Below are positions 20,529 through 37,649 of a stretch of 64,000 bases of DNA, piece by piece (position 1 is the stretch's first letter; each line of letters starts with the position of its first letter). Where the stretch lies: contig JAPLGD010000072.1 in NCBI GenBank assembly GCA_026390345.1, forward strand, positions 1,128 through 65,127, in the 5' to 3' direction. This stretch comes from Candidatus Bipolaricaulota bacterium. Lineage in GTDB: Bacteria; Bipolaricaulota; Bipolaricaulia; UBA7950; UBA9294. The notes under the pieces are model-generated. The model saw only the letters and a list, made by a program, of their open reading frames with translations. It ran no database searches and was not told the DNA's origin. The translations under genes were made by a program, and so were the position numbers.

Positions 20529-20705
20529 GCTTCTCCTCTCGCAATAGACACGTGAACCCGTCGTCCGATCATGCTTCTGACGGGCTTCCGGGTCCACGTC
20601 CGGCACCGCATGGACGGGCCGTCGGGATCCGTGCTCTCCAGGTTCGCGACGAGGAAGGCGCCGACATCCAGGGCTTCCGGAACGCCGGCTCTCCGACGCG
20701 CGTGG

Positions 20706-21806
20706 TCAGTCATCTTCACGCCCTCTTGCCTGCCGAGCTGGATTCGGCGGCACCTGCCCGGGTACCGAGCGTCCGGGTTCGCTGGCACCGGGTACAAGCG
20801 TCGATCCAAGGAGAAACCCGTCCCTCAATGGATCGTCGGAGTCGATCACGAACTCGTGACGCCCGGTCACGAAGGCGCGGCCCGAGATCTCAGGAACGAC
20901 CGCCGCGTGGTCACCGACCTGGGTCTCCTCGACGAGGCGACCGGTGAGCGTGGTGCCGATCAGGCTCTCGTGAACGAACGGCTCGTCGAGGTCGACCTCG
21001 CCCCGCGCGTAGAGGATCGCTAGACGAGCCGCCGTCCCGGTGCCACATGCGGATCGGTCGATCGCACCCGGCGGGATGACGACGGCGTTGCGGCCGGAGA
21101 CGTCGGGGTTGTCCGAGGGGGCGGTGAACTGAACGTGGGTGATCTCGTCGACCCACGCGAACTCGGGGTGGTGAACGAGAAGCTGCCGCCTCGCCGCCTC
21201 CCGCACGGCAATCCCCACCCGGACAATGTCGGAAGCGGAACTCGGAACGAGCCGCAGGCCGAAGCACTTCGCATCGACCGAGACGTACACGTTGCCACCG
21301 TACGCGACATCGACGTCCACCCTGCCGAAGCCGGGAATGTCGACCGGCGTGTCGAGCGTGAAGACGAACGCAGGGACCGAGCGGAACGAGACCCGCACGG
21401 CTCCTCCATGGTCGATGAGAACCCGAGCCGTGACGAGTCCGCCGGGCGTGTCGAGAACGACGGAAGTCTCTCCCGAGCCTCGAATCAGGCCGGCCTCGAC
21501 CAAGGCCGTGCAGCACCCGATCGTGTCGTGCCCGCACATCGGCAAGTACCCGCCGACCTCGACAAAGACGGCGCCGAAGTCCGCGTCGTGGCGACAGGGT
21601 TCCGTCAGCACGACGGCGGACATGACGCTGTTCCCCCGCGGCTCGTACACGAGGGCGGTGCGAATCCAGTCCATGTGCCTGCGAAGGTACAGAGCGCGCT
21701 CTGCAATGCTGTCGCCGGGAATCGCGGGCAGCCCTGAAAGGATCGTGCGCGTCGGCTCACCGCCGGTATGGGTGTCGATCGCTACGATGCGCTGTGTGTG
21801 AGCCAC
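20706..21806 (-). CDS. Proline racemase-family enzyme, Cys/Cys type (4-hydroxyproline epimerase or proline racemase).
   Basis: N-terminus VAIDTHTGGEPTR. First catalytic Cys in MCGHDTIG, second in DRSACGTGTAA. There is an apparent C-terminal extension of about 30 residues beyond the family end (DPLRDGFLLG). Confidence 0.8.
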   Translation of the reverse strand: MAHTQRIVAIDTHTGGEPTRTILSGLPAIPGDSIAERALYLRRHMDWIRTALVYEPRGNSVMSAVVLTEPCRHDADFGAVFVEVGGYLPMCGHDTIGCCTALVEAGLIRGSGETSVVLDTPGGLVTARVLIDHGGAVRVSFRSVPAFVFTLDTPVDIPGFGRVDVDVAYGGNVYVSVDAKCFGLRLVPSSASDIVRVGIAVREAARRQLLVHHPEFAWVDEITHVQFTAPSDNPDVSGRNAVVIPPGAIDRSACGTGTAARLAILYARGEVDLDEPFVHESLIGTTLTGRLVEETQVGDHAAVVPEISGRAFVTGRHEFVIDSDDPLRDGFLLGSTLVPGASEPGRSVPGQVPPNPARQARGREDD

Positions 21807-21933: not shown

Positions 21934-22536
21934 ATGGAACCCGTAGGGCAGCTCATTCGCGACCTCCGTGCGGAGAAAGGATGGACGTTGAAGGAACTCG
22001 CATCGAAGTGCGAGCTCTCAACCAGCTTTCTCTCGCAGGTCGAGCGCGGCCTCTCCTCGGTGTCGATCACGTCTCTCCACGTCATCTGCCAGGCTCTCGG
22101 GATGACGCTGGGCGAGTTCTTCCACCAGCTCGGAGACGGTGTCGGGCAGCCCGAGACCGAAGGGCGAACGCTCGAGGTCATGAAGGCGAAAGACCAGCGG
22201 GCGATTAACCTGTCGGAGGCATCCATCAAGTACCGCTTTCTCAGCCGTGAGTTTCCCGGTCGGCAGTTCGAGATCATGCTCGGGGAAATCCCGTCGGGCT
22301 ACTTCTATCCGCCGTTCTCCCACGAAGGCGAGGAGTTCGGCTACGTCCTCGAAGGCCAACTGCGACTCACGATCGGCGACGATACCTACACCCTTGGCCC
22401 CGGAGACAGCTACCACTTTGCGGCGTCGACGCCCCATGGATACCAGGCGGAGGGCGACGCAGCCGTGCGGATCCTGTGGGTTCAGACCCTGAAGTACTTC
22501 CAGACCCGCGATGGCATCCCGGCCCAGCAGGAGTGA
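21934..22536 (+). CDS. XRE-family HTH transcriptional regulator with a C-terminal cupin domain.
   Basis: N-terminus LRAEKGWTLKELASKCELSTSFLSQVERG (HTH_XRE). C-terminal cupin (FSHEGEEFGYVLEGQL). It is a paralog of the regulator at 43039..44115. Confidence 0.8.
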   Translation: MEPVGQLIRDLRAEKGWTLKELASKCELSTSFLSQVERGLSSVSITSLHVICQALGMTLGEFFHQLGDGVGQPETEGRTLEVMKAKDQRAINLSEASIKYRFLSREFPGRQFEIMLGEIPSGYFYPPFSHEGEEFGYVLEGQLRLTIGDDTYTLGPGDSYHFAASTPHGYQAEGDAAVRILWVQTLKYFQTRDGIPAQQE

Positions 22537-23533
22537 CCCGTCGAAGCTTGCGGAGAGCTCGGCGGGCGGGCGCCTTCTCTACCTGTCAAGCCAGGACGTA
22601 GAGAGGGTCGGACTCACGGAATCCGAGGTCGTGGCGGAGATCGCTTCGCTGTTCGTAGAGAAGGCCGCCGGACGAGTCGAGGCGCCACCCAAGCTCGGAG
22701 TTCATCCAACAAGGGACTCATTCCTGCACGCGATGCCAGCGCACGTTCCGGGCCGTCGCGCGACGGGGATGAAGTGGATCGGCGCATTCCCTGAGAATCG
22801 AACCCACGGGGTCCCACAGATCAGCGGGGTCATCGTGATCAACGACGACGACACCGGTCTTCCTCTCGCCATCCTCGACGCGCGCTGGGTGACGGCGAAG
22901 CGAACCGCCGCCGCGTCCGCCCTCGCAGCGAGGCACTTGGCGCGCCCGGACGCATCCAAGGTGGGGATTCTCGGCTGCGGGGTGCAGGGCCGGAGCCATC
23001 TCGTGGCCCTGTGCGCCGAGTTCCGTATCGAGGAGGTCGTCGCGTACGATCCATCCGAGGAGGCGCGAACGCTCTACGCGGAGGAGATGCGCGAGCACAC
23101 GGGCGTACGCGTTTGCCCCTCGGCCGTGCCGCGCGACGCGGTGGAGGGGCGCGACGTGGTCGTGACCGCGGGGCCGATCGCGCGAACTCCCTATGCGACC
23201 ATCGAGGCCGGCTGGCTCCCGGAGGGTGCGTTCGCCGCGGCCGTCGACTACGCGTCCGCCTGGAGCGCTGGCGCACTCGCAACATTCGACCGGATCTACA
23301 CCGACGACATCCCGCAACTCGAGGCCCAACAACGGGAAGGCTACTTCCCTGACCTCCCCGCGCCTTACGCTGACCTGGGCCAGGTTGTGGTCGGCGCAAA
23401 GCGGGGCAGGACGACCGGGAAGGACCGGATCATGGCCTGCCTCCTCGGCCTCGCGGCCGAAGATGTCGTCGTCGGCCGCCTCGTCGCCGAGCGGGCTGTC
23501 GCGAAGGGAATCGGTACCTGGCTTCCGCTGTAG
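22511..23533 (+). CDS. Ornithine cyclodeaminase/mu-crystallin family NAD(P)-dependent enzyme, likely a delta1-pyrroline-2-carboxylate (or P5C) reductase.
   Basis: OCD-family pattern LYLSSQDVERVGL...GAFPENR...GILGCGVQGRSHL (Rossmann). It sits next to a Cys/Thr proline-racemase-family dehydratase. Confidence 0.7.
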   Translation: MASRPSRSDPSKLAESSAGGRLLYLSSQDVERVGLTESEVVAEIASLFVEKAAGRVEAPPKLGVHPTRDSFLHAMPAHVPGRRATGMKWIGAFPENRTHGVPQISGVIVINDDDTGLPLAILDARWVTAKRTAAASALAARHLARPDASKVGILGCGVQGRSHLVALCAEFRIEEVVAYDPSEEARTLYAEEMREHTGVRVCPSAVPRDAVEGRDVVVTAGPIARTPYATIEAGWLPEGAFAAAVDYASAWSAGALATFDRIYTDDIPQLEAQQREGYFPDLPAPYADLGQVVVGAKRGRTTGKDRIMACLLGLAAEDVVVGRLVAERAVAKGIGTWLPL

Positions 23534-23553
23534 GAGAGGCCGCGAGGAGGACT

Positions 23554-24615
23554 GTGAACGTGGAGCGAACGCTCGGAGAGCGAAGTCAGACGACGGAATG
23601 GCGCTCGCGCGAGGGGTGGCAAGCGTTTCGAACGGTCGACCTCCATGCAGCGGGCGAGCCGTTGCGCATCGTGACCGAGGGCTTTCCTGAGCTCCGCGGC
23701 GCGACGATGCTTGAGCGCCGACAGGATGCTCGAGCGCGCTGCGACGGGCTGCGGCGGATTCTCATGTGGGAGCCCCGCGGCCACGCCGACATGTATGGGT
23801 GTCTCGTCACTCCTCCTGCGACCGACGACGCGGACTTCGGCGTTCTCTTCATGCACAACGAGGGGTGGAGCACCATGTGCGGTCACGGCGTGATCGCCGT
23901 GACGACGGCGGCCATCGAGCTCGGATGGGTCGCCGCACAAGAACCTGAGACGACGGTGCGAATCGACGCCCCGGCGGGCCGAATCACGGCGGTGGCGCAC
24001 CTCGAGGTTGGACACGTCCGCGCGGTCCGGTTCCGCAACGTCCCGTCGTTCGTGCTCGCCTTGGATCAGGCGGTCGACGTTCCCGGGATCGGGCGCGTTC
24101 GATACGACCTCGCGTTCGGCGGTGCGTTCTACGCGTACGTGGACGCCGCGGACGTGGGACTCCGGTGCGCCCCCGAGGAGGTCGAGGCGTTGATCGTCGC
24201 AGGCCGCGCCATCAAGCACGCCGTCGTGGCTCAGCGCTCGATTCCGCATCCCCTCGACCCCGACCTAGGCTTCCTCTACGGCGTGATCCTCATCGCGCCG
24301 CCGCTCTCGGACGAAGCGGACAGCCGAAACGTCTGCGTCTTCGCGGACGGCGAGGTCGACCGAAGCCCGACCGGCACCGGGGTAAGCGGCCGGCTGGCGC
24401 TGCACTACGCGCGCGGCGAATTGGAGCTGGGACAGCCATTGGTAATCGAGAGCATCCTCGGCACTCGCTTCACAGGCCGCGTCGCGGAGGAGACGACGTG
24501 TGGCGCGTTCGCGGCCGTGGTCCCGGAGGTCGAGGGCACGGCACACATCACCGGCTACCACACGTTCGTCGTCGATCCCGACGACCCGCTCCGGGCGGGG
24601 TTTCTCGTGCGGTAG
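23554..24615 (+). CDS. Proline racemase-family enzyme, Cys/Thr type, predicted trans-3-hydroxy-L-proline dehydratase.
   Basis: DLHAAGEPLRIVTEG. First catalytic Cys in MCGHGVIA. The second catalytic position is Thr (DRSPTGTGVS), the hallmark of characterised T3LHyp dehydratases. Confidence 0.75.
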   Translation: MNVERTLGERSQTTEWRSREGWQAFRTVDLHAAGEPLRIVTEGFPELRGATMLERRQDARARCDGLRRILMWEPRGHADMYGCLVTPPATDDADFGVLFMHNEGWSTMCGHGVIAVTTAAIELGWVAAQEPETTVRIDAPAGRITAVAHLEVGHVRAVRFRNVPSFVLALDQAVDVPGIGRVRYDLAFGGAFYAYVDAADVGLRCAPEEVEALIVAGRAIKHAVVAQRSIPHPLDPDLGFLYGVILIAPPLSDEADSRNVCVFADGEVDRSPTGTGVSGRLALHYARGELELGQPLVIESILGTRFTGRVAEETTCGAFAAVVPEVEGTAHITGYHTFVVDPDDPLRAGFLVR

Positions 24616-24644: not shown

Positions 24645-27011
24645 CTACGCCTCGCTGTGCGCGGTGCGGGCGATGACCTCCTCCTGCAACGCCCGGTCGA
24701 GGGCGTGGAAGTAGTCGCTGTACCCGGCCACTCGAACGATCAGGTCTCGGTACTCCTCCGGGTTCTCCTGCGCACGCCTCAACGTGGCGGTATCGACGAC
24801 GTTGAATTGGATGTGGTGGCCATCGTACCGGAAGTACGTCCTCACGATCGCCGCCACCTTCCGCAGCCCCTCCTCGTCCTTGAGGACGTCAGGAAGGAAT
24901 CGCTGGTTGAGGAGAGTGCCCCCCGTGCGGACGTGGTCGATCTTCCCCACGGAGCGAATGACGGCCGTCGGTCCGTGCGTGTCGGCCCCCTGCGTCGGCG
25001 AGATCCCGTCGGACAGTGGAATCCCGGCGCGGCGGCCGTTCGGTGTGGCACCGACCTTCTCACCAAAGAAGACGTGGACCGTGGTCGGCAGGAGGTTGAC
25101 GCGGTGCGCGCCGCCCTTCGTGTTCGGCCGCCCGTCGATGGCATCGAAGTACGCGTCGAAGATCCGCCGCGCGATGTCGTCGGCGCGGTCGTCGTCGTTG
25201 CCGAAGAACGGGGTCTCGTGCACGAGCAGGTTACGCTCGGCGTCGTGCCCCGCGAAGTCAGCCGCGAGGACTCGAAGCAGGCGGTCCATCGAGAAAGACT
25301 TGCGCACGAACACGTGCTCGCGGATCGCCGAGAGGGAGTCGGTCGCTGTCCCCATCCCGACCCCCTGGATGTACGTCGACTTGTACCGCGGACCCGAGCC
25401 GTTGTAGTCCTGGCCCTTCTCGATGCAGTCGTCGACGAGCACCGAGATGAACGGAGCGGGCATGTGCTCGGCGAAGATTCGCTCAATGCGACCGTTGCCC
25501 TCGACCTTGACGTCCACGAAGTGGCGAAGCTGCTTCTCGAACGCGTCGAAGACCTGCTCGAAGCTCTCGAACGTGCGCGGGTCGCCCGTGCTCGGCCCGA
25601 TCCGACGGCCGCTATTTGGGTCGACGCCGTCGTGGAGCGCCAGCTCGAGGAGCTTCGGCCAGTTCATGTAGCCGGTCAGAATGCAGCTCTCCTTGCCGAA
25701 CGCGCTGATCTCGACGCAGCCGCTCGGCCCGCCGGAGCGGGCGTCACGTAGGCTCTTTCCGACGCGCAGGAACTCCTGCACGATCGCGTCCGTGTTGAAG
25801 ATCGACGGCTGGCCGAACCCCTTCCGAATCACCTCGAGGGTCCGGAGCAGGAATCGGTCAGGGCTCTTCTTTGAGAGCTGCACGCACGATCCGGTGTACG
25901 GGAGCCGCATCTCCTCGATCACGTCAAGCACGAGGTAGGACAGCTCGTTGACGGCGTCGGCTCCGTCCGGGGTCACGCCTCCGACGTTGATCAGGGTGAA
26001 GTCGTTGTACGTCGCGCTCTGCTCTTCCGTCACGCCGACCTTCGGGGGTGCTGGTTGGTTCGAGAACTTCACCCAGAAGCACTCGAGCAGCTCCTTCGCG
26101 CCGTCCCGGGTCAGCCGGCCTGCGTCGACGTCCCGCCGGTAGAACGGGTACAGGTTCACGTCGAGACGTCCCGGGTTGTAGGAGTCCCACTCGTTCAGCT
26201 CGGTGACGACGCCCAAGTGGACGAACCAGTACATCTGCAACGCCTCGCGGAACGTCCGCGGAGCGTGGGCCGGTACCCACGAGCAGATCTCGGCAATCTC
26301 GAGCAGCTCGGCGCGGCGCGCTGGGGTCTTCGCCTCGCCTGCCATGCGCCGCGCGAGATCGGCGTACCGCCCGACAAGTCGGATGAGCGCGTCGCAGACG
26401 ATTTCCATCGCGTCGAGTTCGTCGACCCGCGCCGCGCGGTCCGCAACGTCGGAGGTTCGGAAGCGGTCCCGTGCTTCGGCAATCCGTGCCTTGAAGTCGA
26501 GGAAGCCATGGCGATAGATCTTGTCGTCGAGGATTGCGTGGCCTGGCGCCCGCTGCTCCATGAACTCCGTGAACACCCCCGCGTCGAACGCCGCGTGCCA
26601 GTCTTCGGACATCGCCGCGAACACCCGCTCGCGGAGGCTCTTTCCTTTCCAGAAGGGGATGATCCTCGACTCGTACAGCGTCTTCGTCGCGTCATCCACG
26701 AGGAACGGCGTCTTCCGGCGGGTCGAGAGGACCCGAAGATCCTCGAGCGAGTGGCAGCACAATTCGGGGTATGTCGACGTCGCGCGGGGCCGCGGGCCCC
26801 TCTCGCCAACGATCAGCTCGTCGTCCCCGATGTAGATCGTTTCGTTCTCGAGGATGTAGCGGAATCCCCGTGCGCGATGGACAGGAACGGACTCGCGTAG
26901 GGTCGCACTCTCGCGCTCGAAGCGCGTCAGGAGTTCCGCGCGTTCGCCGCTCACGCTCGGGCGGGTCGTCACGCATTCGGTTCGCAACCGCTCCACTCTC
27001 TCGTTCATCAT
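24645..27011 (-). CDS. Glycyl radical enzyme of the dehydratase/eliminase class, most similar in architecture to trans-4-hydroxy-L-proline dehydratase (HypD).
   Basis: 788 residues. C-terminal glycyl radical motif IVRVAGYSDYF. Active-site Cys loop GCVE (GGPSGCVEISAFG) as in HypD, CutC and glycerol dehydratase. PFL-like fold length. Confidence 0.85.
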   Translation of the reverse strand: MMNERVERLRTECVTTRPSVSGERAELLTRFERESATLRESVPVHRARGFRYILENETIYIGDDELIVGERGPRPRATSTYPELCCHSLEDLRVLSTRRKTPFLVDDATKTLYESRIIPFWKGKSLRERVFAAMSEDWHAAFDAGVFTEFMEQRAPGHAILDDKIYRHGFLDFKARIAEARDRFRTSDVADRAARVDELDAMEIVCDALIRLVGRYADLARRMAGEAKTPARRAELLEIAEICSWVPAHAPRTFREALQMYWFVHLGVVTELNEWDSYNPGRLDVNLYPFYRRDVDAGRLTRDGAKELLECFWVKFSNQPAPPKVGVTEEQSATYNDFTLINVGGVTPDGADAVNELSYLVLDVIEEMRLPYTGSCVQLSKKSPDRFLLRTLEVIRKGFGQPSIFNTDAIVQEFLRVGKSLRDARSGGPSGCVEISAFGKESCILTGYMNWPKLLELALHDGVDPNSGRRIGPSTGDPRTFESFEQVFDAFEKQLRHFVDVKVEGNGRIERIFAEHMPAPFISVLVDDCIEKGQDYNGSGPRYKSTYIQGVGMGTATDSLSAIREHVFVRKSFSMDRLLRVLAADFAGHDAERNLLVHETPFFGNDDDRADDIARRIFDAYFDAIDGRPNTKGGAHRVNLLPTTVHVFFGEKVGATPNGRRAGIPLSDGISPTQGADTHGPTAVIRSVGKIDHVRTGGTLLNQRFLPDVLKDEEGLRKVAAIVRTYFRYDGHHIQFNVVDTATLRRAQENPEEYRDLIVRVAGYSDYFHALDRALQEEVIARTAHSEA

Positions 27012-27012
27012 C

Positions 27013-27957
27013 CTATCCCCCTATCGTTACCGGCAAGCTCGTCGCAGCACGAACGGCCGCGACTGCGTCCTCGATCGTCTCTGGGTCGGATGGAAGCACG
27101 CCGGGAAGCTCATAGCGTCTCCCCAAGTGTGCGAACTTCCGCTCCCCCGCGGCGTGGTACGGGAGGATTTGCACGGCCTCCACGCCAGGAAGTCGCGAGA
27201 CGAACCGCCCGAGTTCCCTCAGGTCCCGCTCCGAATCGTTCACACCGGTGATCAACGGATACCGGATCCAGACGCGCTTCCCATCCTCCGACAGGCAGCG
27301 GAGGTTCGCGAGAATCGTCGCGTTCGAGACGCCCGTCCACCGACGGTGCCGCTCGTCATCGAGCAGCTTGATGTCGTACAGGAAGAGATCGGTGTGGGCC
27401 GCCACCGCAGCAAGGGCTGGCTCGGCGGCGAAACCGCATGTGTCGACCGCCGTGTGGATCCTGCGCTCCTGGCACGCCTGAAGAAGCTCCGCGGCAAACT
27501 CTGGTTGCGCGAGCGGCTCGCCCCCCGACAGCGTGACGCCTCCCCGCGACTGATCGTAGAAGAGCACGTCGCGGTCGATTTCGGAGAGGAGGTCGTCAAT
27601 CGTGCGCGTCGAGCCGACGATTGATCGTGCTCGAGGGACGCACGCTGCGACACAGGCGCCGCAGGCCGTGCAACGGGTCCGGTCGGTCTCGGGCTTTGCG
27701 GCGGTCGACGCACGGGCGATTGCCCCATGGGGGCACGCCGAGACGCACGCCCCGCAGGCGACGCACCGCTCGCCCCAGAAGAGGAGCTCCGGCCCTCGCT
27801 CCTGGCTCTCCGGGTTGTGGCACCACGCACAGCGCAGGGGACAGCCTTTCAGGAAGACCGTGGTGCGTACGCCCGGGCCGTCGTGGATGGCAAAGCGCTT
27901 GAGGTCGAAGATGGTCCCGGTTCTCGACGCCGTTACAGTGGCACTGCACGTTCTCAT
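27013..27957 (-). CDS. Glycyl radical enzyme activating enzyme (radical SAM, with additional ferredoxin-like Cys clusters).
   Basis: Trimmed to ATG 27957 (MRTCS...GTIFDLKRFAIHDGPGVRTTVFLKGCPLRCAWCHNPES). CxxxCxxC motif plus CVACGACVSACPHG and CTACGACVAAC inserts. The 120-codon upstream extension of the ORF is out-of-context read-through and was rejected. Confidence 0.85.
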   Translation of the reverse strand: MRTCSATVTASRTGTIFDLKRFAIHDGPGVRTTVFLKGCPLRCAWCHNPESQERGPELLFWGERCVACGACVSACPHGAIARASTAAKPETDRTRCTACGACVAACVPRARSIVGSTRTIDDLLSEIDRDVLFYDQSRGGVTLSGGEPLAQPEFAAELLQACQERRIHTAVDTCGFAAEPALAAVAAHTDLFLYDIKLLDDERHRRWTGVSNATILANLRCLSEDGKRVWIRYPLITGVNDSERDLRELGRFVSRLPGVEAVQILPYHAAGERKFAHLGRRYELPGVLPSDPETIEDAVAAVRAATSLPVTIGG

Positions 27958-28049
27958 GCCCTCGTCCCCTTCGATCCGTGCTCGCCGATCCGCAGAGAAA
28001 CGATACGTCGAGATCCGAACGGATGCAAGGGCATGCGCCGGCTCTTGTA

Positions 28050-28063
28050 GTGTCACTGAACAC
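28050..28063 (-). promoter_or_regulatory. Operator-like element GTGTTCAgTGACAC inside the hyuB/activase intergenic gap. It shares the GTTCA and GTGACAC half-sites with the regulator promoter at 44136-44190.
   Basis: Motif read on the minus strand at 28050-28063 (plus strand gtgtcactgaacac). A 145 nt gap is unusual inside an otherwise overlap-coupled operon. Confidence 0.3.
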
Positions 28064-28102
28064 GAGGATTCAAGGGGCGGGATCGCCCTAGGCTGGCGCA
28101 GT

Positions 28103-29932
28103 CTAGGGCGTCGCCTTGGGAACCCTAGGCTTGGCTTTGGAAGCCTTGGGGTTCTCCTTGGAAGCCGTAGGGCTCCCCTCGGAACCCGCAGGGTTCCCTT
28201 TGGCCCGACGACGTTCGGTCGCACGGGCGTCGACGGCAAGGGCAAGGGGGTCTCCCGCGAGCACGACGCCGTAGACGCAGTCCGCTGCCTCACGGGACAC
28301 GTACCCGTTCTCGACATCGGCTCGGACCGCCTCCGGGGGACGCGTCATCGGATCGCCATAGCCGCCGCCCGTGCCCGTGATGAAGCGAACCAGGGTTCCG
28401 GCGGGCATGACTTCTCCGGACAAACGTCCGCGCCGGTCGATCCGGCCGTCGGGGTAGTAGACCTCAACACCGTTCGTGGACCCGTCGTGGCCGCCCGCGA
28501 ACCCCCACGGCGGGTACAGGTGGCGGCCGAAGCTCGCGGTCACCGACGCGCGTGAGTTCCGGATGCGGTAGTCCTTGACGATGCCGAGGCCGCCGCGCCG
28601 TGCCCCATGCCCGGCGTCCGCAGCGTGGAGCGCGAACTGTTCCACGAGAAGCGGGTAGCGCGTCTCGGCGACCTCGGCGGAGAGGATGTACGTCTCGCCG
28701 TCGTTCGTACAAACGAGGGCGCTCTCCCCGTCCTTTCCCGCGGCCGCGCCCCACCCCCCCGCGTTGGGCTCGACGGAGAAGAACCACTCCCCCGTCTCGT
28801 CGGAAATCCCGCTGACGGTGGTCCCGCAGACCGAGAGGAAGTGGCCGGCGGGGATCCGGTCTGGAAGCGCCGCCGCAAGCGCTCTCCAGATGACGTCCCC
28901 GGAGTAGGCGTCCGACTCCCAGTAGGTGCTGATCGGGGCCGGGCGTTTCGGATTGAACACCGTGTCCTCGGGCACCACGATCCGAAGGGGAGCGAAGAAG
29001 CCCTCGTTCGGCGCCGCGTGGGGCGAAAGCACGCTCTGGTACGCGAACTTCACCGTGCTGATCAGAACCGAAAGCGGGCAATTGATCGGCCCGGCGCACG
29101 TCTTGCCGGTCCCCGTGAAGTCGACGACGAACTCGTCGTCGCTGAGGGTGACGCGGACGTGCACGGGGACCGGATCACCTCCGAGGCCGTCGTCGTCAAT
29201 GAACTCCTCGGCTTCGTAGACGCCGTGAGGCAGAGACCGGAGCTCCGCAAGGGCGTGGCGCCGACCCTGGTCGATCGAGATCTCGATGGCCTCGAGCACC
29301 GCCTCGACGCCGAACTTGCCGCACAACTCGGCCACGCGCCGGGCCGCGACGTGGAGCGACGCCGCCTGAGCGCGCATGTCGCCGAGGGTCAGCTCGGGAG
29401 CTCGCACGTTGCGGGCCACCATCTCAACGATGTCCTCGACCTCCTCGCCGGCGGAGACGAGGCGGACAACGGGAAACTGGATCCCTTCCTGATAGATGTC
29501 GGTGGCGCTCGGGGACCAGCTCCCGGGGTCCTTGCCACCGACGTCGTTCCAGTGTGCCTTGCTCGCCGCGAACAGGACCAACTCGCCGTTGAAGAAGACG
29601 GGCGCGACGAGAACAACATCGTTCTGATGCGTGGCGCCGCCCATGTACGGATCGTTGGTCATGAACACATCGCCGGGCCGAATGCGCCCGCGGAACTTGG
29701 CGAGCACGTCGCGGACGGCGTCGGTCAGAACCCCAATGAACGGCGGGATGCCGTTCGCCTGGGCGACCATGCGGCCCGCGCGATCGACCACGGCGCACCC
29801 GTAGTCGAGGACCTCGTAGATGACGGAGCTCTTTGCGGTGCGTCCGAGCGCCACAAACATCTGCTCCGCCGCAGAGACGAGCGCCCGCTTGATGACTTCG
29901 ACGGTGAACAGATCGACGGAGCGCGCGGTCAT
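28103..29932 (-). CDS. Hydantoinase B/oxoprolinase family protein (HyuB-like subunit) with a Lys/Pro-rich C-terminal tail.
   Basis: Trimmed to the ATG overlapping the hyuA stop (ATGA). N-terminus MTARSVDLFTVEVIKRALVSAAEQMFVALGRTAKSSVIYEVLDYGCAVVD. The 489-codon upstream extension of the ORF was rejected. The tail is KGNPAGSEGSPTASKENPKASKAKPRVPKATP. Confidence 0.85.
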   Translation of the reverse strand: MTARSVDLFTVEVIKRALVSAAEQMFVALGRTAKSSVIYEVLDYGCAVVDRAGRMVAQANGIPPFIGVLTDAVRDVLAKFRGRIRPGDVFMTNDPYMGGATHQNDVVLVAPVFFNGELVLFAASKAHWNDVGGKDPGSWSPSATDIYQEGIQFPVVRLVSAGEEVEDIVEMVARNVRAPELTLGDMRAQAASLHVAARRVAELCGKFGVEAVLEAIEISIDQGRRHALAELRSLPHGVYEAEEFIDDDGLGGDPVPVHVRVTLSDDEFVVDFTGTGKTCAGPINCPLSVLISTVKFAYQSVLSPHAAPNEGFFAPLRIVVPEDTVFNPKRPAPISTYWESDAYSGDVIWRALAAALPDRIPAGHFLSVCGTTVSGISDETGEWFFSVEPNAGGWGAAAGKDGESALVCTNDGETYILSAEVAETRYPLLVEQFALHAADAGHGARRGGLGIVKDYRIRNSRASVTASFGRHLYPPWGFAGGHDGSTNGVEVYYPDGRIDRRGRLSGEVMPAGTLVRFITGTGGGYGDPMTRPPEAVRADVENGYVSREAADCVYGVVLAGDPLALAVDARATERRRAKGNPAGSEGSPTASKENPKASKAKPRVPKATP

Positions 29933-31977
29933 GGGGTGGCCTCCTCGACGAGGATCAGGTTGCCGAACCGGTCTCGCCGCACCGTCTGTCCCGGCAGAAC
30001 GACCGTCGTCGACGCCGGCTCCTCGATGACGGCGGGGCCCTCGATCGCACGATCGACAGGAATCCGGTCCCGTTCGAAGACGCGCGCGCTCACCCATCCA
30101 AGGCCCTCGTACTGCACCCGACGGTCCTTCTTCCGCGCCGCGGAGAGCGAGGTCGACCCGGCGTCGACCTCGCGCAGCGACGGCTTGCGCACCGTTCCCC
30201 AAGCGGCCACGTGGTAGTTGACGACCTCGACGGGATCGGCGAGCCGGAACGCGTACGCGCGCTCGTGCAGGGCGTGGAACCGCTCGAGGAGGCGGTCGAG
30301 GTCGTCGTCCTCGAGGATCGGAGTGAGGACGGCGTGCTCCTGCCCTGCGTACCGCAGATCCACGTACTGCTGCGCCCAGGCTCGCTCGACGACCACGCGT
30401 TCCTCGGCAAAGCTGCGCAGCGCCTCGGAGGTCAGATCGCCGATCTCGGAGCGCACGTGCTCCCACGTCGCAGGGTTGCACGGCGTCACGCGGGTCCGGA
30501 CGAAGTCCTGGCGCAAGTCGGTGAGGAGCATTCCCCACGCGGAGAACTGGCCCGGCGCGGCGGGGATGAGGATCGTGCCGACGTGGAGCTGCCGCGCGAG
30601 CGACGACGCGTGGAGTCCACCAGCGCCGCCGTAGGCGACCAAGGCGAAGTCGCGCGGGTCGTGTCCGCGCTCTACGGTGACACGCTCCAGCGCGGCCTGC
30701 ATGTTGGCGTTCACCAGGCGCAGAATTCCCATCGCCGCGTCGTCCTCGCCGAGACCGACCCGTTCGCCGAGTGACGCGACCGCGCGGCGGGCGCTCTCGC
30801 CGTTCAGCGTCATTCGCCCAGCCAGGAAGTAGTCGGCATCGAGTCGGCCGGCCAGGAGGTTCGCGTCCGTCACCGTGGGCAGGGTCCCCCCGCGGCCATA
30901 GCACGCAGGCCCGGGACTTGCCCCCGCGCTCCGCGGTCCGACGTGGAGCCCGCCTCCCTCGTCGAGCCACGCGATCGATCCCCCGCCGGCACCGACTTCG
31001 ACGATGTCGACGACGGGGATGCGAAGCGGATACCCGGCCCACGTCTGCGACCGCTCGAGGTGGTAGTCGGTCCGGATCGCAACCTCCCCGGACTCGATCA
31101 CGCTCACCTTGGCCGTGGTCCCCCCCATGTCGAACGCGATGCAGTTCTCCAAGCCCGCCTGCCGCGCCACGGCGGCCGCTCCGATGATTCCGCCGACCGG
31201 CCCCGACTCGACGAGGTGGATCGGCAGCCGCCGCGACCGGCCGAAGCTGCTCGTTCCCCCGTTCGACTGCATCGTCAGCATCGAGCCTCGCAGACCGCGA
31301 GCCTCGAGCTGCTCGGCCAACGAAGCGAGGTAGGCGTCCGCCACGGGGCGCACGTAGGCGTTGAGGACGGTGGTGTTCGTGCGCTCGTACTCCCGCCACT
31401 CGCGCGTCAGCTCGTGGGACGCCGACACCGGAATCCCCGGGCAGGCTTCCTCGAGAAGGCGCTTCGCGCGCGCCTCGTGCTCGACGTGCGCGTAGGCGTG
31501 GAGGAAGCAGACGGCGATCGCCTCAACGTCGCTGCGTTGGCACGCGGTGGCGACTTCGAGCACGTCCTCTTCGGAGAGCGGCTCGAGAACCTCGCCCTTC
31601 CACGTGACGCGCTCGCGGACCTCGAACCGCAGGGCCCGAGGTACGAACGGCGTGGGCTTGCGGTAGAGGAGGTTGTACATGTCCGTGCGGTTCGCGCGCT
31701 GGATCTCGAGGACGTCGCGAAAGCCCCGCGTGGTGACGAGGGCGACGCGGCACCCCGTCCGCTCGGTAAGCGCGTTGATGACCACGGTGGTCCCGTGGAC
31801 GAACTGGGAGACGTCGGCAAGATCCACGTTCCCTTGGGCAATCGCATCGAGGACGCCGTCGGCGAAGTTGCCGGGCGTCGTCAGCGTCTTTCCGAGGTCA
31901 AGCGCACCGGTTGACTCGTCCAGGGCGACCAGGTCGGTGAACGTGCCCCCGATGTCGACGGCGAGCCTCCGGCTCAC
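29929..31977 (-). CDS. Hydantoinase A/oxoprolinase family protein (HyuA-like subunit).
   Basis: N-terminus MSRRLAVDIGGTFTDLVALDE (ASKHA-fold glycine-rich motif). 682 residues. Its start overlaps the upstream ABC ATPase stop (ATGA). Confidence 0.85.
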   Translation of the reverse strand: MSRRLAVDIGGTFTDLVALDESTGALDLGKTLTTPGNFADGVLDAIAQGNVDLADVSQFVHGTTVVINALTERTGCRVALVTTRGFRDVLEIQRANRTDMYNLLYRKPTPFVPRALRFEVRERVTWKGEVLEPLSEEDVLEVATACQRSDVEAIAVCFLHAYAHVEHEARAKRLLEEACPGIPVSASHELTREWREYERTNTTVLNAYVRPVADAYLASLAEQLEARGLRGSMLTMQSNGGTSSFGRSRRLPIHLVESGPVGGIIGAAAVARQAGLENCIAFDMGGTTAKVSVIESGEVAIRTDYHLERSQTWAGYPLRIPVVDIVEVGAGGGSIAWLDEGGGLHVGPRSAGASPGPACYGRGGTLPTVTDANLLAGRLDADYFLAGRMTLNGESARRAVASLGERVGLGEDDAAMGILRLVNANMQAALERVTVERGHDPRDFALVAYGGAGGLHASSLARQLHVGTILIPAAPGQFSAWGMLLTDLRQDFVRTRVTPCNPATWEHVRSEIGDLTSEALRSFAEERVVVERAWAQQYVDLRYAGQEHAVLTPILEDDDLDRLLERFHALHERAYAFRLADPVEVVNYHVAAWGTVRKPSLREVDAGSTSLSAARKKDRRVQYEGLGWVSARVFERDRIPVDRAIEGPAVIEEPASTTVVLPGQTVRRDRFGNLILVEEATP

Positions 31978-32954
31978 GATGTCCGCTCCTGGGATCCGGG
32001 GTATAGGTGGCAGCGAACCACGTGCCCCGCCGCGACCTCCACCGTGGCTGGGTCGATCTTGTCACAGACGTCGAGCCGGCTCGGACAGCGCGAGTGGAAG
32101 CTGCATCCGGGAGGGATGTTCACCGGGCTCGGGATCTCGCCCCGCGAGATCCCCTTCGCCGGCTTCAGGCTCTCCTCCTCGTCCGAGACCACCGGGATCG
32201 ACGAGAGGAGCATCTTCGTGTACGGATGCAGCGGCATCTGGAAGAACTCGGCCGTGTTCGCGATCTCGCTCAGCTTCCCGAGGTACATGATCGCGACGCG
32301 CGACGCGACGTTTCGCATCAGCGACATGTCATGGGTGATGAACAGGTACGTGAGCCCCATCTCCTTCTGGAGTCCGAGGAGGAGGTTGATGATCTTCGCC
32401 TGGACCGAGACGTCGAGCGCCGACGTTGGCTCATCCAGAACGACGAACGAGGGGTCGGTGGCCAGAGCACGGGCGATGGCCACCATCTGCTTCTCCCCGC
32501 CGCCGATCGACTGCGGGTGCTTGTAGAGATACTCGGCCGGCGGAAGCTCCACACGCTCGAGGAGCGCGCTGATCCGCGCCACCTGCTCGCGCCCCGAGGC
32601 CAGGTGATGGACGGCGAGCGGTGTCGCCAGGATCTGCTTGATGGTCCGCTTCGGGTTGAGCGACGAGCCGGGGTCCTGGAACACGATCCGGATCTCGCGC
32701 TTCAGCTCCTTGCTGCGCTTTGCCGCCGTGGCGCCGATCGACTGCCCATGGAACAGAATGTCGCCCGTTGTGGGAGCGTAGATCCCGACCACGCACTGCG
32801 CCGTCGTCGTTTTCCCCGACCCCGATTCGCCCACGAGGCCGAGGGTGTCGCCGGGCGCCATCCGAAAGTCGATGTCGTCAACGGCGCGCACCGTGCCCCG
32901 CTTGGTGGGAAAGAACTTCGTCAGTCCGCGAGCTTCGAGGATGGGTTCGGTCAT
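31974..32954 (-). CDS. ABC transporter ATP-binding protein, OppF/DppF-like.
   Basis: Trimmed to MTEPILEARGLTKFF. Walker A GESGSGKTT, signature IGGGEKQM variant, Walker B VVLDEPTSALD. Confidence 0.85.
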   Translation of the reverse strand: MTEPILEARGLTKFFPTKRGTVRAVDDIDFRMAPGDTLGLVGESGSGKTTTAQCVVGIYAPTTGDILFHGQSIGATAAKRSKELKREIRIVFQDPGSSLNPKRTIKQILATPLAVHHLASGREQVARISALLERVELPPAEYLYKHPQSIGGGEKQMVAIARALATDPSFVVLDEPTSALDVSVQAKIINLLLGLQKEMGLTYLFITHDMSLMRNVASRVAIMYLGKLSEIANTAEFFQMPLHPYTKMLLSSIPVVSDEEESLKPAKGISRGEIPSPVNIPPGCSFHSRCPSRLDVCDKIDPATVEVAAGHVVRCHLYPGSQERTS

Positions 32955-33952
32955 GACGGGGACCTCCGGTACAGGTAGCAGGCCGCACGCTGGTCGGCTC
33001 CGACGTCCGACATCGGCGGCGCCTCGACCGAGCATTCAGGCATTCGATGGGGACAGCGGGGATGGAATCGGCACCCCGGTGGGGGTTCCAAGTAGTTCGG
33101 GATGCGACCCGGGATCCCCTCGCTGACGCCACGCCCCGTGAGTCGGGGCACGCTCGCCATCAACCCCTGCGTGTACGGGTGCTTCGGCGACGCGAGCAGC
33201 TGCCGCGTGGGTCCGGTCTCCACGATCGAGCCGGCGTACATGATGTAGATGCGCTGCGTCAGGTCGCGGACCACGCCCATCGAGTGCGTGATCATGAGGA
33301 CGGACGAGCCCTTCTGGTCGACGAGCCGATCGAGCTTGCGAAGAATCTGATCCTGGATCGTGACGTCGAGGTTGGTGGTCGGCTCGTCGGCGAGAAGGAG
33401 TCGCGCGGTCGTCGACAAGGCCTCCGCAATGCAAACGCGCTGGCGCATTCCCCCCGACAACTGGATCGGGTAGTTCGACATGATGCGCTCCGGATCCGGC
33501 ATCCCGGTCTCCTCGAGCGCCTGGATGCAGCGCGCTTCGATCTCTCGGCGCGACAGAACCCTCCCTTCCGGCGTGCGCATCGAGTCGCGAACGATGTCGC
33601 GAAGCTGTGAGCCGACTGTGAACACCGGGTTGAGCGACTGGAGCGGGTCCTGGAAGATGGCGGTCAACTCCTCCCGGCGCAACACGTGGAGCGCGCGGCG
33701 GTGCATCCTTAGCACGTCGCGTCCGCGGTAGAGGATCTCGCCGCTGGTCACTATCGCAGGAGGGATCGGCAACACGCGCAGCACCGATTTCACGGTCGTC
33801 GTCTTCCCGCACCCGGTTTCCCCGACCAGTCCGACTCGCTCGCCCTCGGCGACCCAGAGAGTGACGCCGGCCAGGACGCGCAGGTGGCCCTCGAAGATGC
33901 GAAAACCGACGTGGAGGTCCCGAATCTCGAGCAAAAGCGATGCGTTGGGCAT
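32951..33952 (-). CDS. ABC transporter ATP-binding protein, OppD/DppD-like.
   Basis: Trimmed to MPNASLLLEIRDL (333 residues). Walker A GETGCGKTT, signature LSGGMRQR, Walker B LLLADEPTTNLD. The 287-codon N-terminal extension of the ORF was rejected. Confidence 0.85.
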   Translation of the reverse strand: MPNASLLLEIRDLHVGFRIFEGHLRVLAGVTLWVAEGERVGLVGETGCGKTTTVKSVLRVLPIPPAIVTSGEILYRGRDVLRMHRRALHVLRREELTAIFQDPLQSLNPVFTVGSQLRDIVRDSMRTPEGRVLSRREIEARCIQALEETGMPDPERIMSNYPIQLSGGMRQRVCIAEALSTTARLLLADEPTTNLDVTIQDQILRKLDRLVDQKGSSVLMITHSMGVVRDLTQRIYIMYAGSIVETGPTRQLLASPKHPYTQGLMASVPRLTGRGVSEGIPGRIPNYLEPPPGCRFHPRCPHRMPECSVEAPPMSDVGADQRAACYLYRRSPS

Positions 33953-34848
33953 CAGACGTCCTCCACGGCGAAGACGTCGCGCAGTCCGTCTCCGATGAGG
34001 TTGAAGGCGAGGATGACGATCACGATGGCGAGCGCGGGGAAGATCGTCGACCACCACTCCGCCGGGAGGCGCTTCGCCCCCTCGGCGACCATGGTTCCGA
34101 GCGCGGGCTTGGGCGGCTGGACGCCGAGGCCGACGAAGCTGAGCGTCGACTCGATGAGAATGACGAGCCCCATGTCGAGCGTCATCTTCGTCATGATCGG
34201 AGCGAAGCAGTTGGGAAGGATTTCGCGGAACAGGATGTGGAACTGGCTCGCCCCGGTGAGCTCCGCCTCCTTCACGAAGTACTCGTTCCGAAGGGACGAC
34301 GCGAGCGAGAATACGAGACGCGAGTACCACGGCCACCAGACGAGGGCGATCGCCATCATCTGGTTGATCAGGTTCGGAGTCAGCATTGCCGTGATGGCAA
34401 GGGCCAGAACCAGCGGTGGCACCGCGAGGAAGACGTCGGTCACCCTCATGATCACGACCTCGACCCACGTTCCGCGGCGGTAGCCGGCAATGAGGCCGAG
34501 GATGACTCCGGGAGCCACTCCGAGGCCGAGCACGACGGCGCCGATCATGAGCGAGAAGCGGTACCCGAACAGGGTCCGGCTGAAAATGTCGCGGCCGATC
34601 CGGTCGGTCCCGAAGAAGTGTTGCGCGCTCGGTGCCTGGCTCGCATCGCGGAAGTTCGTGTACGCCTTGGCGTGCCCGGGGTACGGAGCGATGTACGGAG
34701 CGAAGATGGCCACGAACAAGACGAGGACGAGGATGACCAACCCCAAGACAGACAGCGGGTTGCGCGAGTACTTGTACCAGCCGTGGGCGAGGTTGCGCCG
34801 CCGCTGGCGCCAAGCGGCAAGGAGGTCGGCCTTCGTCGATTCACGCAT
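33952..34848 (-). CDS. ABC transporter permease, OppC/DppC-like.
   Basis: 298 residues with a transmembrane pattern and a C-terminal FNLIGDGLRDVFAVEDV. Its stop overlaps the ATPase start. Confidence 0.85.
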   Translation of the reverse strand: MRESTKADLLAAWRQRRRNLAHGWYKYSRNPLSVLGLVILVLVLFVAIFAPYIAPYPGHAKAYTNFRDASQAPSAQHFFGTDRIGRDIFSRTLFGYRFSLMIGAVVLGLGVAPGVILGLIAGYRRGTWVEVVIMRVTDVFLAVPPLVLALAITAMLTPNLINQMMAIALVWWPWYSRLVFSLASSLRNEYFVKEAELTGASQFHILFREILPNCFAPIMTKMTLDMGLVILIESTLSFVGLGVQPPKPALGTMVAEGAKRLPAEWWSTIFPALAIVIVILAFNLIGDGLRDVFAVEDV

Positions 34849-34851
34849 CGC

Positions 34852-35871
34852 CTACGCACCTCCCTGTCGAAGCCGAACGGTCGGATCGAGAAACATGATG
34901 ATGATGTCGACGATCAGGTTGACCAGAGCGAACGTGATCCCGATGACGAGGACCACAGCAACGATCGCGTTCAGGTCCTTGTTGAGCATCGCCGTCATGG
35001 CGTAGCGGGAGAACCCCGGCCACATGTACACAGTCTCCACGAGAAACGCGTTCGACATCAGGAACGCAAAGTCGAGGCCCATGACCGTGACCGTCGGGAT
35101 GATCGACGGGCGGAGCAAGTACTTGAACAGGATGCGCGAGGTGCGGATCCCGTGGACCTTGTGCAGGGTGATGTAGTCCTTCTGCATCGTTTCAACGATC
35201 GACGTTCGCGTGATGCGCCCTTCCTGAGCGATGTGAATCACGGCAAGGCTGAACGCGGGGAGGAGGAGGTGCTTGAGCGCTGTCACCGTCACGTCCAGGC
35301 GTCCGGCGAGGAGCCCATCGACCATCATGAACCCCGTTCGCACCGGGGGCGGCTGCATCATGATCGGGATCCTGCCGATCCCCGGAGCCAGCTTGAGCAC
35401 CTGGCTGAACACGAAGAGAAGCAGGATGGCGACCACGAACGAGGGGGTCGCGATCCCGAGGTAGGAGACGAGCCGAGAGACCCCATCGAACCACGAGTTG
35501 CGGAAATACCCGGCAAGCACTCCGGTGACCTGTCCAACCACGAAGGAGATCAACGTAGCGAACAGGATCAGTTCCAGCGTGGCCGGGATGTACTGCGCCA
35601 GATCGCTAGCCACCGATCGCCGCGTGTAGGACGATACGCCGAGGTCTCCGTGCAGCAGGGATCGGAGCCAGTAGTAGTACTGGACGGGAAACGAATCGTT
35701 CAGGTGCATCTGCTCCCGCACCCGCTCCACCTGTTCCTGCGACGCCAGAAGACCGAGCGCCTGGCGTGCGGGGTCGCCGGGGACGACGCGAGCAATGAAG
35801 AAGATCAGGAGGGAGAGCCCAAACAGGACGAACACCGACTGCAGGAGCCTGAGACCGATGTACTTGGCCAT
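34852..35871 (-). CDS. ABC transporter permease, OppB/DppB-like.
   Basis: 339 residues, N-terminus MAKYIGLRLLQSVFVLFGLSLLIFFIARVVPGDP, typical of family-5-associated permeases. Confidence 0.85.
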   Translation of the reverse strand: MAKYIGLRLLQSVFVLFGLSLLIFFIARVVPGDPARQALGLLASQEQVERVREQMHLNDSFPVQYYYWLRSLLHGDLGVSSYTRRSVASDLAQYIPATLELILFATLISFVVGQVTGVLAGYFRNSWFDGVSRLVSYLGIATPSFVVAILLLFVFSQVLKLAPGIGRIPIMMQPPPVRTGFMMVDGLLAGRLDVTVTALKHLLLPAFSLAVIHIAQEGRITRTSIVETMQKDYITLHKVHGIRTSRILFKYLLRPSIIPTVTVMGLDFAFLMSNAFLVETVYMWPGFSRYAMTAMLNKDLNAIVAVVLVIGITFALVNLIVDIIIMFLDPTVRLRQGGA

Positions 35872-37522: not shown

Positions 37523-37649
37523 GCTGCATCACCTCTCTCCGCTTCTTTCAGCCACGCACATGCCTCCTTCGGGTTCACCTCTGCTGCCGGTTCCACCTCC
37601 TCGTTCGATCCATCTCCGCGGCCGCGGCGGCTGTCGCCGCCGCGCCTCC

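Follow-up and report, generated by a model that had tools for sequence, protein, structure and literature searches.

A trans-4-hydroxy-L-proline dehydratase cassette beside uncharacterized lactamase-type gene pairs and a dipeptide-type importer in Bipolaricaulota

Organization of the locus

The gene array described here is located in a 64-kb stretch of contig JAPLGD010000072.1 (assembly GCA_026390345.1, positions 1,128 to 65,127 of the forward strand) from a Candidatus Bipolaricaulota bacterium. The whole stretch is called the window, its GC content is ~66%, and all coordinates below are positions within it. Its proteins matched best those of metagenome-assembled Candidatus Bipolaricaulota genomes, including a DUF3830 protein 100% identical to that of the window. 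The original prediction, made from the letters of the window, singled out four consecutive minus-strand genes: hyuA (29929–31977), hyuB (28103–29932), a radical-SAM activase gene (27013–27957), and a glycyl radical enzyme gene (24645–27011). This gene order was borne out, and the four genes were found to be the 3′ end of a 14-gene array consisting of a regulator, HyuA′B′, DUF3830, an M24 peptidase, a Dpp-type ATP-binding cassette (ABC) importer, HyuAB, the activase, and the glycyl radical enzyme HypD. The upstream HyuA′B′ pair, DUF3830, and the M24 peptidase had been missed earlier. What is new is the recurrence of HypD, a hydroxyproline dehydratase, beside uncharacterized lactamase pairs, DUF3830, a prolidase-like peptidase, and a dipeptide-type importer.

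Gene families were assigned by Pfam, by NCBIfam equivalog cut-offs, and by sequence matches to the Protein Data Bank (PDB). Related loci (L numbers) came from two surveys. In the HypD survey, one genome per species was scanned, which gave 79 loci with HypD 50–94% identical to that of the window, and these were searched by tblastn with the window proteins. In the cluster survey, metagenomes were scanned with the binding protein of the window as the query, which gave 53 loci, and these were then probed by tblastn. Clustering of unlabelled open reading frames (ORFs) returned mostly antisense ORFs of high-GC DNA, and few clusters were usable.

All genes of the array are on the minus strand. At its head is a regulator with a helix-turn-helix (HTH) and a double cupin (HTHc2, 43039–44115; Pfam HTH_3 and two Cupin_2 domains), which precedes HyuA′ in most related loci. 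The following genes encode HyuA′ (41001–43046; start ATG 43046 with an AGGAGG ribosome-binding site), HyuB′ (39244–41004), a DUF3830/cyclophilin-like protein (38759–39247; PF12903), and M24b, a prolidase-type Xaa-Pro peptidase with Creatinase_N and Peptidase_M24 domains (37650–38762). The importer comprises a family-5 solute-binding protein of the dipeptide/oligopeptide/opine type (35942–37522; SBP_bac_5), an OppB/DppB-like permease (34852–35871; BPD_transp_1 and BPD_transp_1_N), an OppC/DppC-like permease (33952–34848; BPD_transp_1 and OppC_N), and two Dpp/Opp-type ATPases with ABC_tran and oligo_HPY domains, one D-like (32951–33955) and one F-like (31974–32954).

Most junctions in the array are overlaps of 4–8 bases. 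The binding-protein gene is preceded by a gap of 127 nt and the activase gene by one of 145 nt, the two widest in the array. The F-like ATPase starts at ATG 32954, overlapping the stop of the preceding ATPase, and its own stop overlaps the start of hyuA, which couples the translation of hyuA to that of the importer ATPase gene. The overlap at this junction had been predicted as ATGA; it is real, but it reads GTGA, and hyuA starts with GTG. The overlap between hyuB and hyuA is ATGA, as predicted, and a single base (27012) lies between the activase stop codon TAG (27013–27015) and the ATG of the glycyl radical enzyme (27011). The view that all four focal genes form one coupled operon held for the runs from the ABC genes through hyuA to hyuB and from the activase to the enzyme; it is not supported at the junction of hyuB and the activase gene, where 145 nt intervene and a promoter-like element is conserved.

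The glycyl radical enzyme and its activase

The glycyl radical enzyme (788 aa; PFL-like and Gly_radical domains in Pfam) is confidently predicted to be a bona fide trans-4-hydroxy-L-proline dehydratase. It scored 1167.1 bits against the HypD equivalog NF043068 (cut-off 1100) and was far under the cut-offs of the other glycyl radical enzyme equivalogs. Its best PDB match was Clostridioides difficile HypD (6vxc, 997 bits), followed by glycerol dehydratase (505 bits) and HplG (404 bits). The two motifs of the original prediction were both found, RVAGYSDYF (of the form RVxGY) with the radical glycine G763 and GCVE with C432 and E434 of the CXE motif; the proposal of an eliminating enzyme stood, with HypD as the specific type.

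When the enzyme was aligned to C. difficile HypD, all 15 active-site residues that were checked were identical: F152, R156, H160, W277, D278, K326, S334, D339, F340, C434, V435, E436, Y450, T645, and G765 (C. difficile numbering; the window residue is this number minus 2). The residues for binding and turnover of hydroxyproline (Hyp) were taken from the HypD structure paper (Backman et al. 2020, PMC7077986), and the kept contacts include F340 at the ring, S334, Y450, and T645 at the carboxylate, and, at the amine, D278 as well as D339, the latter through a water. Since all Hyp-contact residues are conserved, the enzyme would bind free Hyp via its amine and carboxylate.

HplG (trans-4-hydroxy-D-proline C-N lyase, PDB 7vua) is likewise a glycyl radical eliminase acting on a hydroxyproline isomer, but the score of the window enzyme against it is less than half of that against HypD, and the residues are those specific to HypD. 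An identity as HplG or as another eliminase was ruled out by these scores and residues.

These residues also bear on the idea that the enzyme and HyuAB act one after the other on a single cyclic amide, the enzyme dehydrating the lactam or HyuAB opening a lactam derived from its product. The genes are adjacent and on the same strand, as such a sequence would have it. The score above the HypD equivalog cut-off and the retention of all amine, carboxylate, and ring contacts tell against it, as do the product of HypD, pyrroline-5-carboxylate, which is not a lactam, and the coupling of HyuAB to the importer rather than to the enzyme. With all contacts to the free amine and carboxylate of Hyp kept, the enzyme is unlikely to act on a lactam or on hydroxylated 5-oxoproline, as in the second hypothesis of the original prediction, and we consider the sequential scheme highly improbable. 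What stands of it is the version in which a Hyp lactam is opened first and free Hyp then passes to HypD.

The activating enzyme (314 aa; Radical_SAM and Fer4) carries the radical-SAM motif CPLRCAWC (CX3CX2C) and two ferredoxin-like motifs, CVACGACVSAC and CTACGACVAAC. It passed the cut-off of TIGR02494 (357 bits, cut-off 174) and was under that of the HypD-activase equivalog NF043069 (353 bits, cut-off 425); its pairing with HypD is assigned from adjacency alone. The longest ORF at this position (27013–28317) overlaps hyuB. The real start was placed at ATG 27957, since the family match begins at residue 14–16 of the 314-aa product and the same start is found in L001.

Overall, the window enzyme belongs to the family of C. 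difficile HypD (6vxc/6vxe), equals it in length, and matches it in the Gly loop, in the Cys loop with CXE, and in the Hyp-contact and acid/base residues; in both organisms, a dedicated activase of the radical-SAM type with two additional Fe-S motifs is encoded alongside. The differences are in the setting: the host is a high-GC uncultured member of Bipolaricaulota, the activase gene is upstream of hypD and its product is below the equivalog cut-off, and trans-3-Hyp genes, lactamase genes, and genes for a prolidase-like peptidase and an ABC importer are its neighbors, unlike in C. difficile, where hypD adjoins a pyrroline-5-carboxylate reductase gene. HypD itself is a known, ordinary enzyme, and its presence here extends an enzyme of gut microbes to uncultured subsurface phyla.

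The two HyuAB pairs and DUF3830

HyuA (682 aa; Hydant_A_N, Hydantoinase_A, and Hydant_A_C) is the ATP-binding subunit, and HyuB (609 aa; Hydantoinase_B, PF02538, 564 bits) is the metal-dependent hydrolytic subunit. HyuA′ and HyuB′ are a second Hydantoinase_A and Hydantoinase_B, 47% identical to HyuA and 40% identical to HyuB, respectively. The ATP motifs phosphate-1 (DxGGTxTD), phosphate-2 (DxGGT), and adenosine (GxxPGP) read, in this order, DIGGTFTD, DMGGT, and GASPGP in HyuA and DVGGTFTD, DMGGT, and GAVPGP in HyuA′. The metal tetrad of HyuB (D43/H102/D105/H127) corresponds to D41/H99/D102/H124 of the caprolactamase subunit CapB, and the four positions are invariant in HyuB′. The three ATP motifs of the A subunit were defined in the caprolactamase study (PMC8453981), in which the metal tetrad was mutated and its role in catalysis was reported as confirmed.

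Against the caprolactamase equivalogs, HyuA scored 510, HyuB 262, HyuA′ 556, and HyuB′ 285 bits, and the cut-offs of 1000 were not reached. The best PDB match of HyuA was 7hk5, a fused protein named N-methylhydantoinase (445 bits), followed by 6yra_A (376 bits); HyuB matched 7hk5 with 290 bits. None of the curated models matched HyuAB as 5-oxoprolinase or N-methylhydantoinase. Lys40 of CapA was tried as a discriminator between oxoprolinases and lactamases and was dropped because this residue could not be placed in the sequence numbering of 6yra_A. The earlier assignment to the ATP-dependent lactamase/carboxylase family was confirmed, and, judged from their sequences, both pairs are outside every characterized subfamily of it. 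To our knowledge, substrates have been assigned to only a minority of the hydantoinase/oxoprolinase family.

The window pairs have the two-subunit architecture, the ASKHA ATP motifs, and the Asp-His-Asp-His site of CapAB (6yra), 5-oxoprolinase, and N-methylhydantoinase, and the expected mechanism, activation of the lactim by ATP followed by metal-assisted hydrolysis, would be common to all. Unlike these systems, the window has two divergent pairs (40–47% identical) in one array, in an operon with a dipeptide-type importer and a prolidase. DUF3830 always comes after HyuB′, and the triad HyuA′-HyuB′-DUF3830 was found in loci of Bipolaricaulota, Hadesarchaea, and Chloroflexi (contigs L141 and L142 in the last).

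At its C-terminus, HyuB has a Lys/Pro/Ser-rich tail of ~25 residues (…GNPAGSEGSPTASKENPKASKAKPRVPKATP; 28103–28180), which is absent in L086 and of another length and sequence in L001 and L061. Elsewhere, tandem duplicated HyuB′ genes follow HyuA′ in L091, L098, L121, and L132, and several HyuB-like genes stand in a row in L085 (13855–17359); these duplications suggest that the hydrolytic subunit is the part that diversifies.

The M24b peptidase had PepQ Xaa-Pro dipeptidase as its top NCBIfam match (218 bits, under the cut-off of 630) and Xaa-Pro peptidases as its best PDB matches (4rgz, 285 bits). In the alignment to 4rgz, all D-D-H-E-E metal ligands were kept (DYG, SDISRT, HRTGHG, VEPG, and RIED).

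The spacer between hyuB and the activase gene

Between the stop of hyuB (28103) and the activase gene, 145 bases are untranslated (27958–28102), which is the largest gap in the co-directional array. Read on the minus strand, the spacer holds a promoter-like block with −35 TTGCAT (28028–28023), 17 nt, and −10 TATCGT (28005–28000), which is kept in L001 and L061. A palindrome, CAGTGACACT (28049–28058), lies upstream of this block, and a second copy, CAGTGCCACT(G) (27936–27946), lies within the first codons of the activase gene. No other exact copy of CAGTG-N-CACT occurs in the 64-kb window, and L001 and L061 likewise have these copies only. One copy is present at −16/−12 of the activase start in L005 and L006. 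In most of the distant loci, CAGTG-N-CACT was absent upstream of the activase gene. When one mismatch was allowed, the palindrome was not enriched in the window (7 found, 8.7 expected); the only notable points are that two copies are exact and where they lie.

No minus-strand terminator-like hairpin was found in the spacer, which also suits the sequential scheme set out above, and no Rfam match (riboswitch or known RNA) was obtained in the spacer or elsewhere in 19–45 kb. We read the spacer as a putative separate promoter with operator-like sites for the HypD cassette. Separate regulation of the cassette is suggested because the promoter-like spacer and its palindromes are conserved and because an HTH-cupin regulator (HTHc1, 21934–22536, plus strand) travels with hypD, adjoining it in L004, L005, L012, L023, L067, L072, and L139.

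Conservation of the adjacency

The four-gene order had been proposed for a test of conservation in relatives and was found not to be conserved. Among the 79 HypD loci, the order ABC-hyuA-hyuB-activase-hypD was present only in L001 (= L019) and L061, with HypD 94% identical. It was absent in L067 (HypD 85%), where hyu and ABC genes were missing from the 5.5 kb upstream of the activase gene, and in L086, where the cluster, the nearest relative of that of the window, is 94–97% identical to it and no HypD is in view. The gene after hyuB in L086 is convergent and, judged by eye from its sequence, aldehyde:ferredoxin oxidoreductase-like. The gene order of L086 and its tail-less HyuB point to a recent origin of the junction after hyuB. 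That the HypD cassette stands right behind hyuB is best explained by a recent rearrangement in the window lineage, and the HyuB tail looks like a scar of it.

The core of the larger cluster is HTHc2-HyuA′-HyuB′-DUF3830-(M24)-binding protein-permeases-ATPases. Beyond the window type, the HypD cassette adjoins this core in ~20 contigs, among which at least three other positions and two distant HypD lineages are represented. It is upstream of HTHc2/HyuA′ in L005, L007, L008, L011, L139, L097, L116, L117, L122, L126, L110, and L120; in the first four of these (HypD 71–76%), the order is activase-hypD-(HTHc1)-HTHc2-HyuA′-HyuB′-DUF3830-M24-binding protein and onward. L139 is the 5′ end of the L002 cluster contig, in which all genes of the window array are present in a permuted order. 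In L106, L136, and L137, with HypD of the distant lineage, the cassette is upstream and HTHc2 is missing; in L103, the cassette is divergently oriented. In L020 (HypD 65%), L090, and L123, it lies after the ATPases, with HyuAB absent between importer and cassette, a further point against the sequential scheme. No hyuAB remnants were found in the gap between importer and activase of L020 and L123, where a 277-aa TatD-family metal hydrolase is encoded between the ATPase and the activase (L020, 8232–9062; L123, ~10040–10875).

In a neighbor-joining tree of the HypD proteins, window-type loci were nested among other arrangements, the loci with the cassette after the ATPases formed a separate clade, and L106, L136, and L137 formed a distant lineage. 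With the varied arrangements, this tree indicates that the adjacency arose or was re-made at least four times. The adjacency in its exact order was sporadic, yet the HypD cassette adjoins the larger cluster in ~20 further contigs, and a pathway-level link is therefore plausible.

The same data have to be weighed against co-location without a common pathway, in which HypD would serve free Hyp and the Hyu pairs would be 5-oxoprolinase-like or other lactamases acting on an unrelated imported lactam. This was the first hypothesis of the original prediction; the genes would lie together only through the bundling of amino-acid catabolism in small genomes of peptide fermenters. The exact four-gene order is confined to near-identical genomes and missing in L086 and L067, and the activase and HypD genes have their own promoter-like region and regulator. 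Outside the clade, no Hyu genes were found within 10 kb of HypD in ~45 loci of other phyla (including Planctomycetota, Aminicenantes, Bathyarchaeota, WOR-3, and Bacteroidales). Peptide genes are also dense in the region anyway, with three peptide-type ABC systems and three M24 peptidases within 45 kb of the window. Chance is hard to reconcile, however, with a cassette that stands beside the same cluster in at least four arrangements and in two distant HypD lineages, or with the remaining accessories of the cluster, which are again proline and hydroxyproline enzymes. We regard co-location without a common pathway as possible and somewhat doubtful.

Accessory genes of the cluster

The second HyuAB pair (the hyuA and hyuB genes of the window) is an accessory of the core and was found in L086, L103, L104, L107, L110, L120, L139, L003, and L083. 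Other accessories beside the core are proline-racemase-family genes with an ornithine cyclodeaminase (OCD) gene in L111 and L118 or with an AcnX-family gene in L083, the latter family being that of cis-3-Hyp dehydratases, as well as Pro_dh and M24 genes in the more distant locus L085. After HypD in L020 (12689–15972) and in L123, a 712-aa Fer2_4/Pyr_redox_2/Fer4/BFD protein and a 383-aa DAO flavoprotein are encoded, and the pair is also present in L121; it is presumably akin to the proline or D-hydroxyproline dehydrogenases of archaeal type.

Further accessories are hydrolases of cyclic amides or metal hydrolases, the TatD-family protein among them. Genes of the creatininase family and of Amidohydro_1 stand beside the cluster in L002, L003, L083, and L120. 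Together with the name of the top solved homologue of HyuAB (7hk5) and the Creatinase_N domain of M24b, these two kinds of gene would suit a route for degradation of creatinine and N-methylhydantoin, in which HyuAB would be an N-methylhydantoinase working with creatininase, a deaminase-type amidohydrolase, and a creatinase-like M24 protein, and HypD would be unrelated. Creatinase is not known to have the five M24 metal ligands; M24b keeps all five and matches Xaa-Pro peptidases. The array of the window has no creatininase gene, its importer is of the dipeptide type, the other accessories are centered on proline and hydroxyproline, and no gene for handling sarcosine was seen. The creatinine route is accordingly judged improbable.

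An insertion of ~2.3 kb between DUF3830 and M24 was seen in L011, L110, L120, L113, L114, and L108; it contains low-GC-looking ORFs with no match to window proteins and may be a mobile element.

The core was also found in an archaeon. L140, from Hadesarchaea archaeon YNP_N21 (LQMP01000024), contains the HTH-cupin regulator, HyuA, HyuB, DUF3830, M24, the binding protein, the permeases, and the ATPases, with the binding protein 71% and DUF3830 60% identical to those of the window, which implies horizontal transfer between Bipolaricaulota and Hadesarchaea.

A proposed route for cyclic amides of proline and hydroxyproline

The explanation we favor, with about an even chance of being right, is that two transcription modules are linked at the level of a pathway: the cluster would open cyclic amides of Pro or Hyp, and HypD would consume the Hyp. 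Module 1 (43046 to 28103) would be a conserved Bipolaricaulota operon with the HTH-cupin regulator, HyuA′B′, DUF3830, the M24 peptidase, the importer, and HyuAB as an accessory. In the first step, a Pro/Hyp cyclic amide would be imported, the favored candidates being X-Pro/X-Hyp 2,5-diketopiperazines, which, as far as we know, resist ordinary peptidases. The lactim would then be phosphorylated by HyuA with ATP and hydrolyzed at the metal site of HyuB, and the resulting linear X-Pro/X-Hyp dipeptide would be split by the prolidase. Module 2 (27957 to 24645) would comprise the activase and HypD under their own promoter-like element and palindromic operator-like sites; the released trans-4-hydroxy-L-proline would be dehydrated to pyrroline-5-carboxylate by the established glycyl radical mechanism. 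The neighboring genes of the trans-3-Hyp dehydratase type and the reductase type would serve trans-3-Hyp.

The gene identities, motifs, spacer, and recurrent, movable adjacency are observed; we infer both the passage of Hyp from the first module to the second and the identity of the cyclic substrate. Diketopiperazines would fit best because a dipeptide-type importer, a ring-opening lactamase, a prolidase, and Pro/Hyp-consuming enzymes occur together. X-Pro peptides cyclize to diketopiperazines spontaneously, notably when hot, and we know of essentially no genes for microbial diketopiperazine breakdown.

Several points weigh against the two-module pathway or parts of it. The diketopiperazine as the specific substrate is a guess; literature searches gave nothing joining the oxoprolinase family with diketopiperazines, and the creatininase and amidohydrolase neighbors are no less compatible with other cyclic amides. 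The cluster is missing from about half of the Bipolaricaulota HypD loci that have 10-kb flanks (e.g. L010, L024, and L029), and no HypD cassette was found in the five cluster loci with both sides visible (L086, L088, L093, L104, and L109); the cluster-free HypD loci, along with L086 and its missing HypD, indicate that the two modules work without adjacency. At the spacer, a simple sigma-70 scan of 24.3–32.2 kb called no promoter, and the promoter-like site is weak, with 3/6 and 4/6 consensus matches, and was recognized by its conservation only. With no terminator in the spacer, transcription could read through from hyuB into the activase gene. All solved binding proteins are only distantly similar to that of the window (best PDB match 73 bits), and compared with L086 and L139 the window gene has a 60-nt in-frame deletion (37490–37530). 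At the deletion point, the window reads VRIPRL/GATDN, and L086 (97% identical) and L139 have ~20 hydrophobic residues there (LGVAVALSAFTVGLLCFIGL); the deletion therefore appears to have removed a signal or anchor segment from the window protein. This could mean a defective importer in this genome or a variant that was collapsed during assembly.

Full-text searches gave no described pathway pairing a glycyl radical enzyme with HyuAB, in agreement with the original prediction, nothing on Bipolaricaulota with hydroxyproline, and no link to DUF3830. The closest operon logic known to us is that of the agropinic acid (aga) genes of Agrobacterium Ti plasmids, in which an importer of the Dpp-like type with a family-5 binding protein is joined to a HyuAB-like lactamase for opening the imported lactam. 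The agropinic-acid binder AgaA was the second-best solved match of the binding protein, at 70 bits (very weak). Unlike the window array, the aga system acts on an opine lactam and is not known to include a prolidase, DUF3830, or a glycyl radical enzyme.

We rate the cluster as a hydroxyproline-utilization cluster with an unusual, uncharacterized front end. That the array is the first genetically defined catabolism of Pro/Hyp cyclic dipeptides, an anaerobic one in which the lactamases open the ring, the prolidase splits the dipeptide, and HypD takes the Hyp, is a speculation that we consider rather unlikely to hold in full. Such a route, if real, might be found in subsurface Bipolaricaulota, with the core also in Hadesarchaea, and this host range is put forward just as tentatively. 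If the proposal is true, the array is a concrete candidate gene set for diketopiperazine catabolism and gives a function to DUF3830 and two orphan lactamase subfamilies. If the link is false, an ordinary HypD cassette has landed beside an unrelated lactam operon.

Genes downstream of hypD

On the plus strand, next to hypD, are a proline-racemase-family gene of the Cys/Thr, trans-3-Hyp dehydratase type (23554–24615; motifs MCGH and DRSPTGTG) and a gene of the OCD/mu-crystallin family (22511–23533). The best NCBIfam match of the former was NF045511 (431 bits, under the cut-off of 540); the latter, which is likely a pyrroline-2-carboxylate reductase, reached no NCBIfam equivalog cut-off. The Cys/Thr pair rule and the role of the neighboring OCD-family protein in the trans-3-hydroxy-L-proline pathway were taken from Zhao et al. 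2014 (PMC4113996). As in that pathway, the Cys/Thr racemase-family gene and the OCD gene adjoin each other in the window (22511–24615); unlike there, the pair sits with the anaerobic HypD route, and both proteins are under the NCBIfam cut-offs. The HTHc1 gene follows at the OCD end. Farther on, the minus strand encodes a proline-racemase-family protein of the Cys/Cys type (20706–21806; MCGH and DRSACGTG), i.e. of the proline racemase or 4-Hyp epimerase type, with NCBIfam scores of 350 bits (cut-off 556) and 317 bits (cut-off 376), and M24a, a second prolidase/aminopeptidase-P-like peptidase (19419–20606; Pfam and NCBIfam).

The activase-HypD cassette also stands beside a Cys/Thr racemase-family gene, often with OCD and M24 genes, in L017, L018, L025, L080, L010, L013, L023, and L073, which belong to Aminicenantes, Gemmatimonadota, Desulfosarcina, and Bipolaricaulota; the Cys/Thr racemase-family and OCD pair adjoins HypD in the Aminicenantes and Desulfosarcina loci L017, L018, and L080. 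An anaerobic module handling both trans-4-Hyp and trans-3-Hyp therefore seems widespread.

Other features of the window

Two further Dpp/Opp-type ABC systems are located at 5–2852 and 12215–18029, and the third M24-like peptidase (18254–19435) follows the second of these; the region is a dense peptide-uptake island. Two ORFs at 3056–5393 had no Pfam match. They are followed by an aerotolerance/Bat-like operon (6858–12218) encoding a MoxR-type AAA ATPase, a BatA-like protein, and a von Willebrand factor A protein. On the minus strand at 52081–57024, a 1647-aa protein is encoded that combines a beta-helix/NosD region, three PKD domains, and a C-terminal caspase-like Peptidase_C14 domain.

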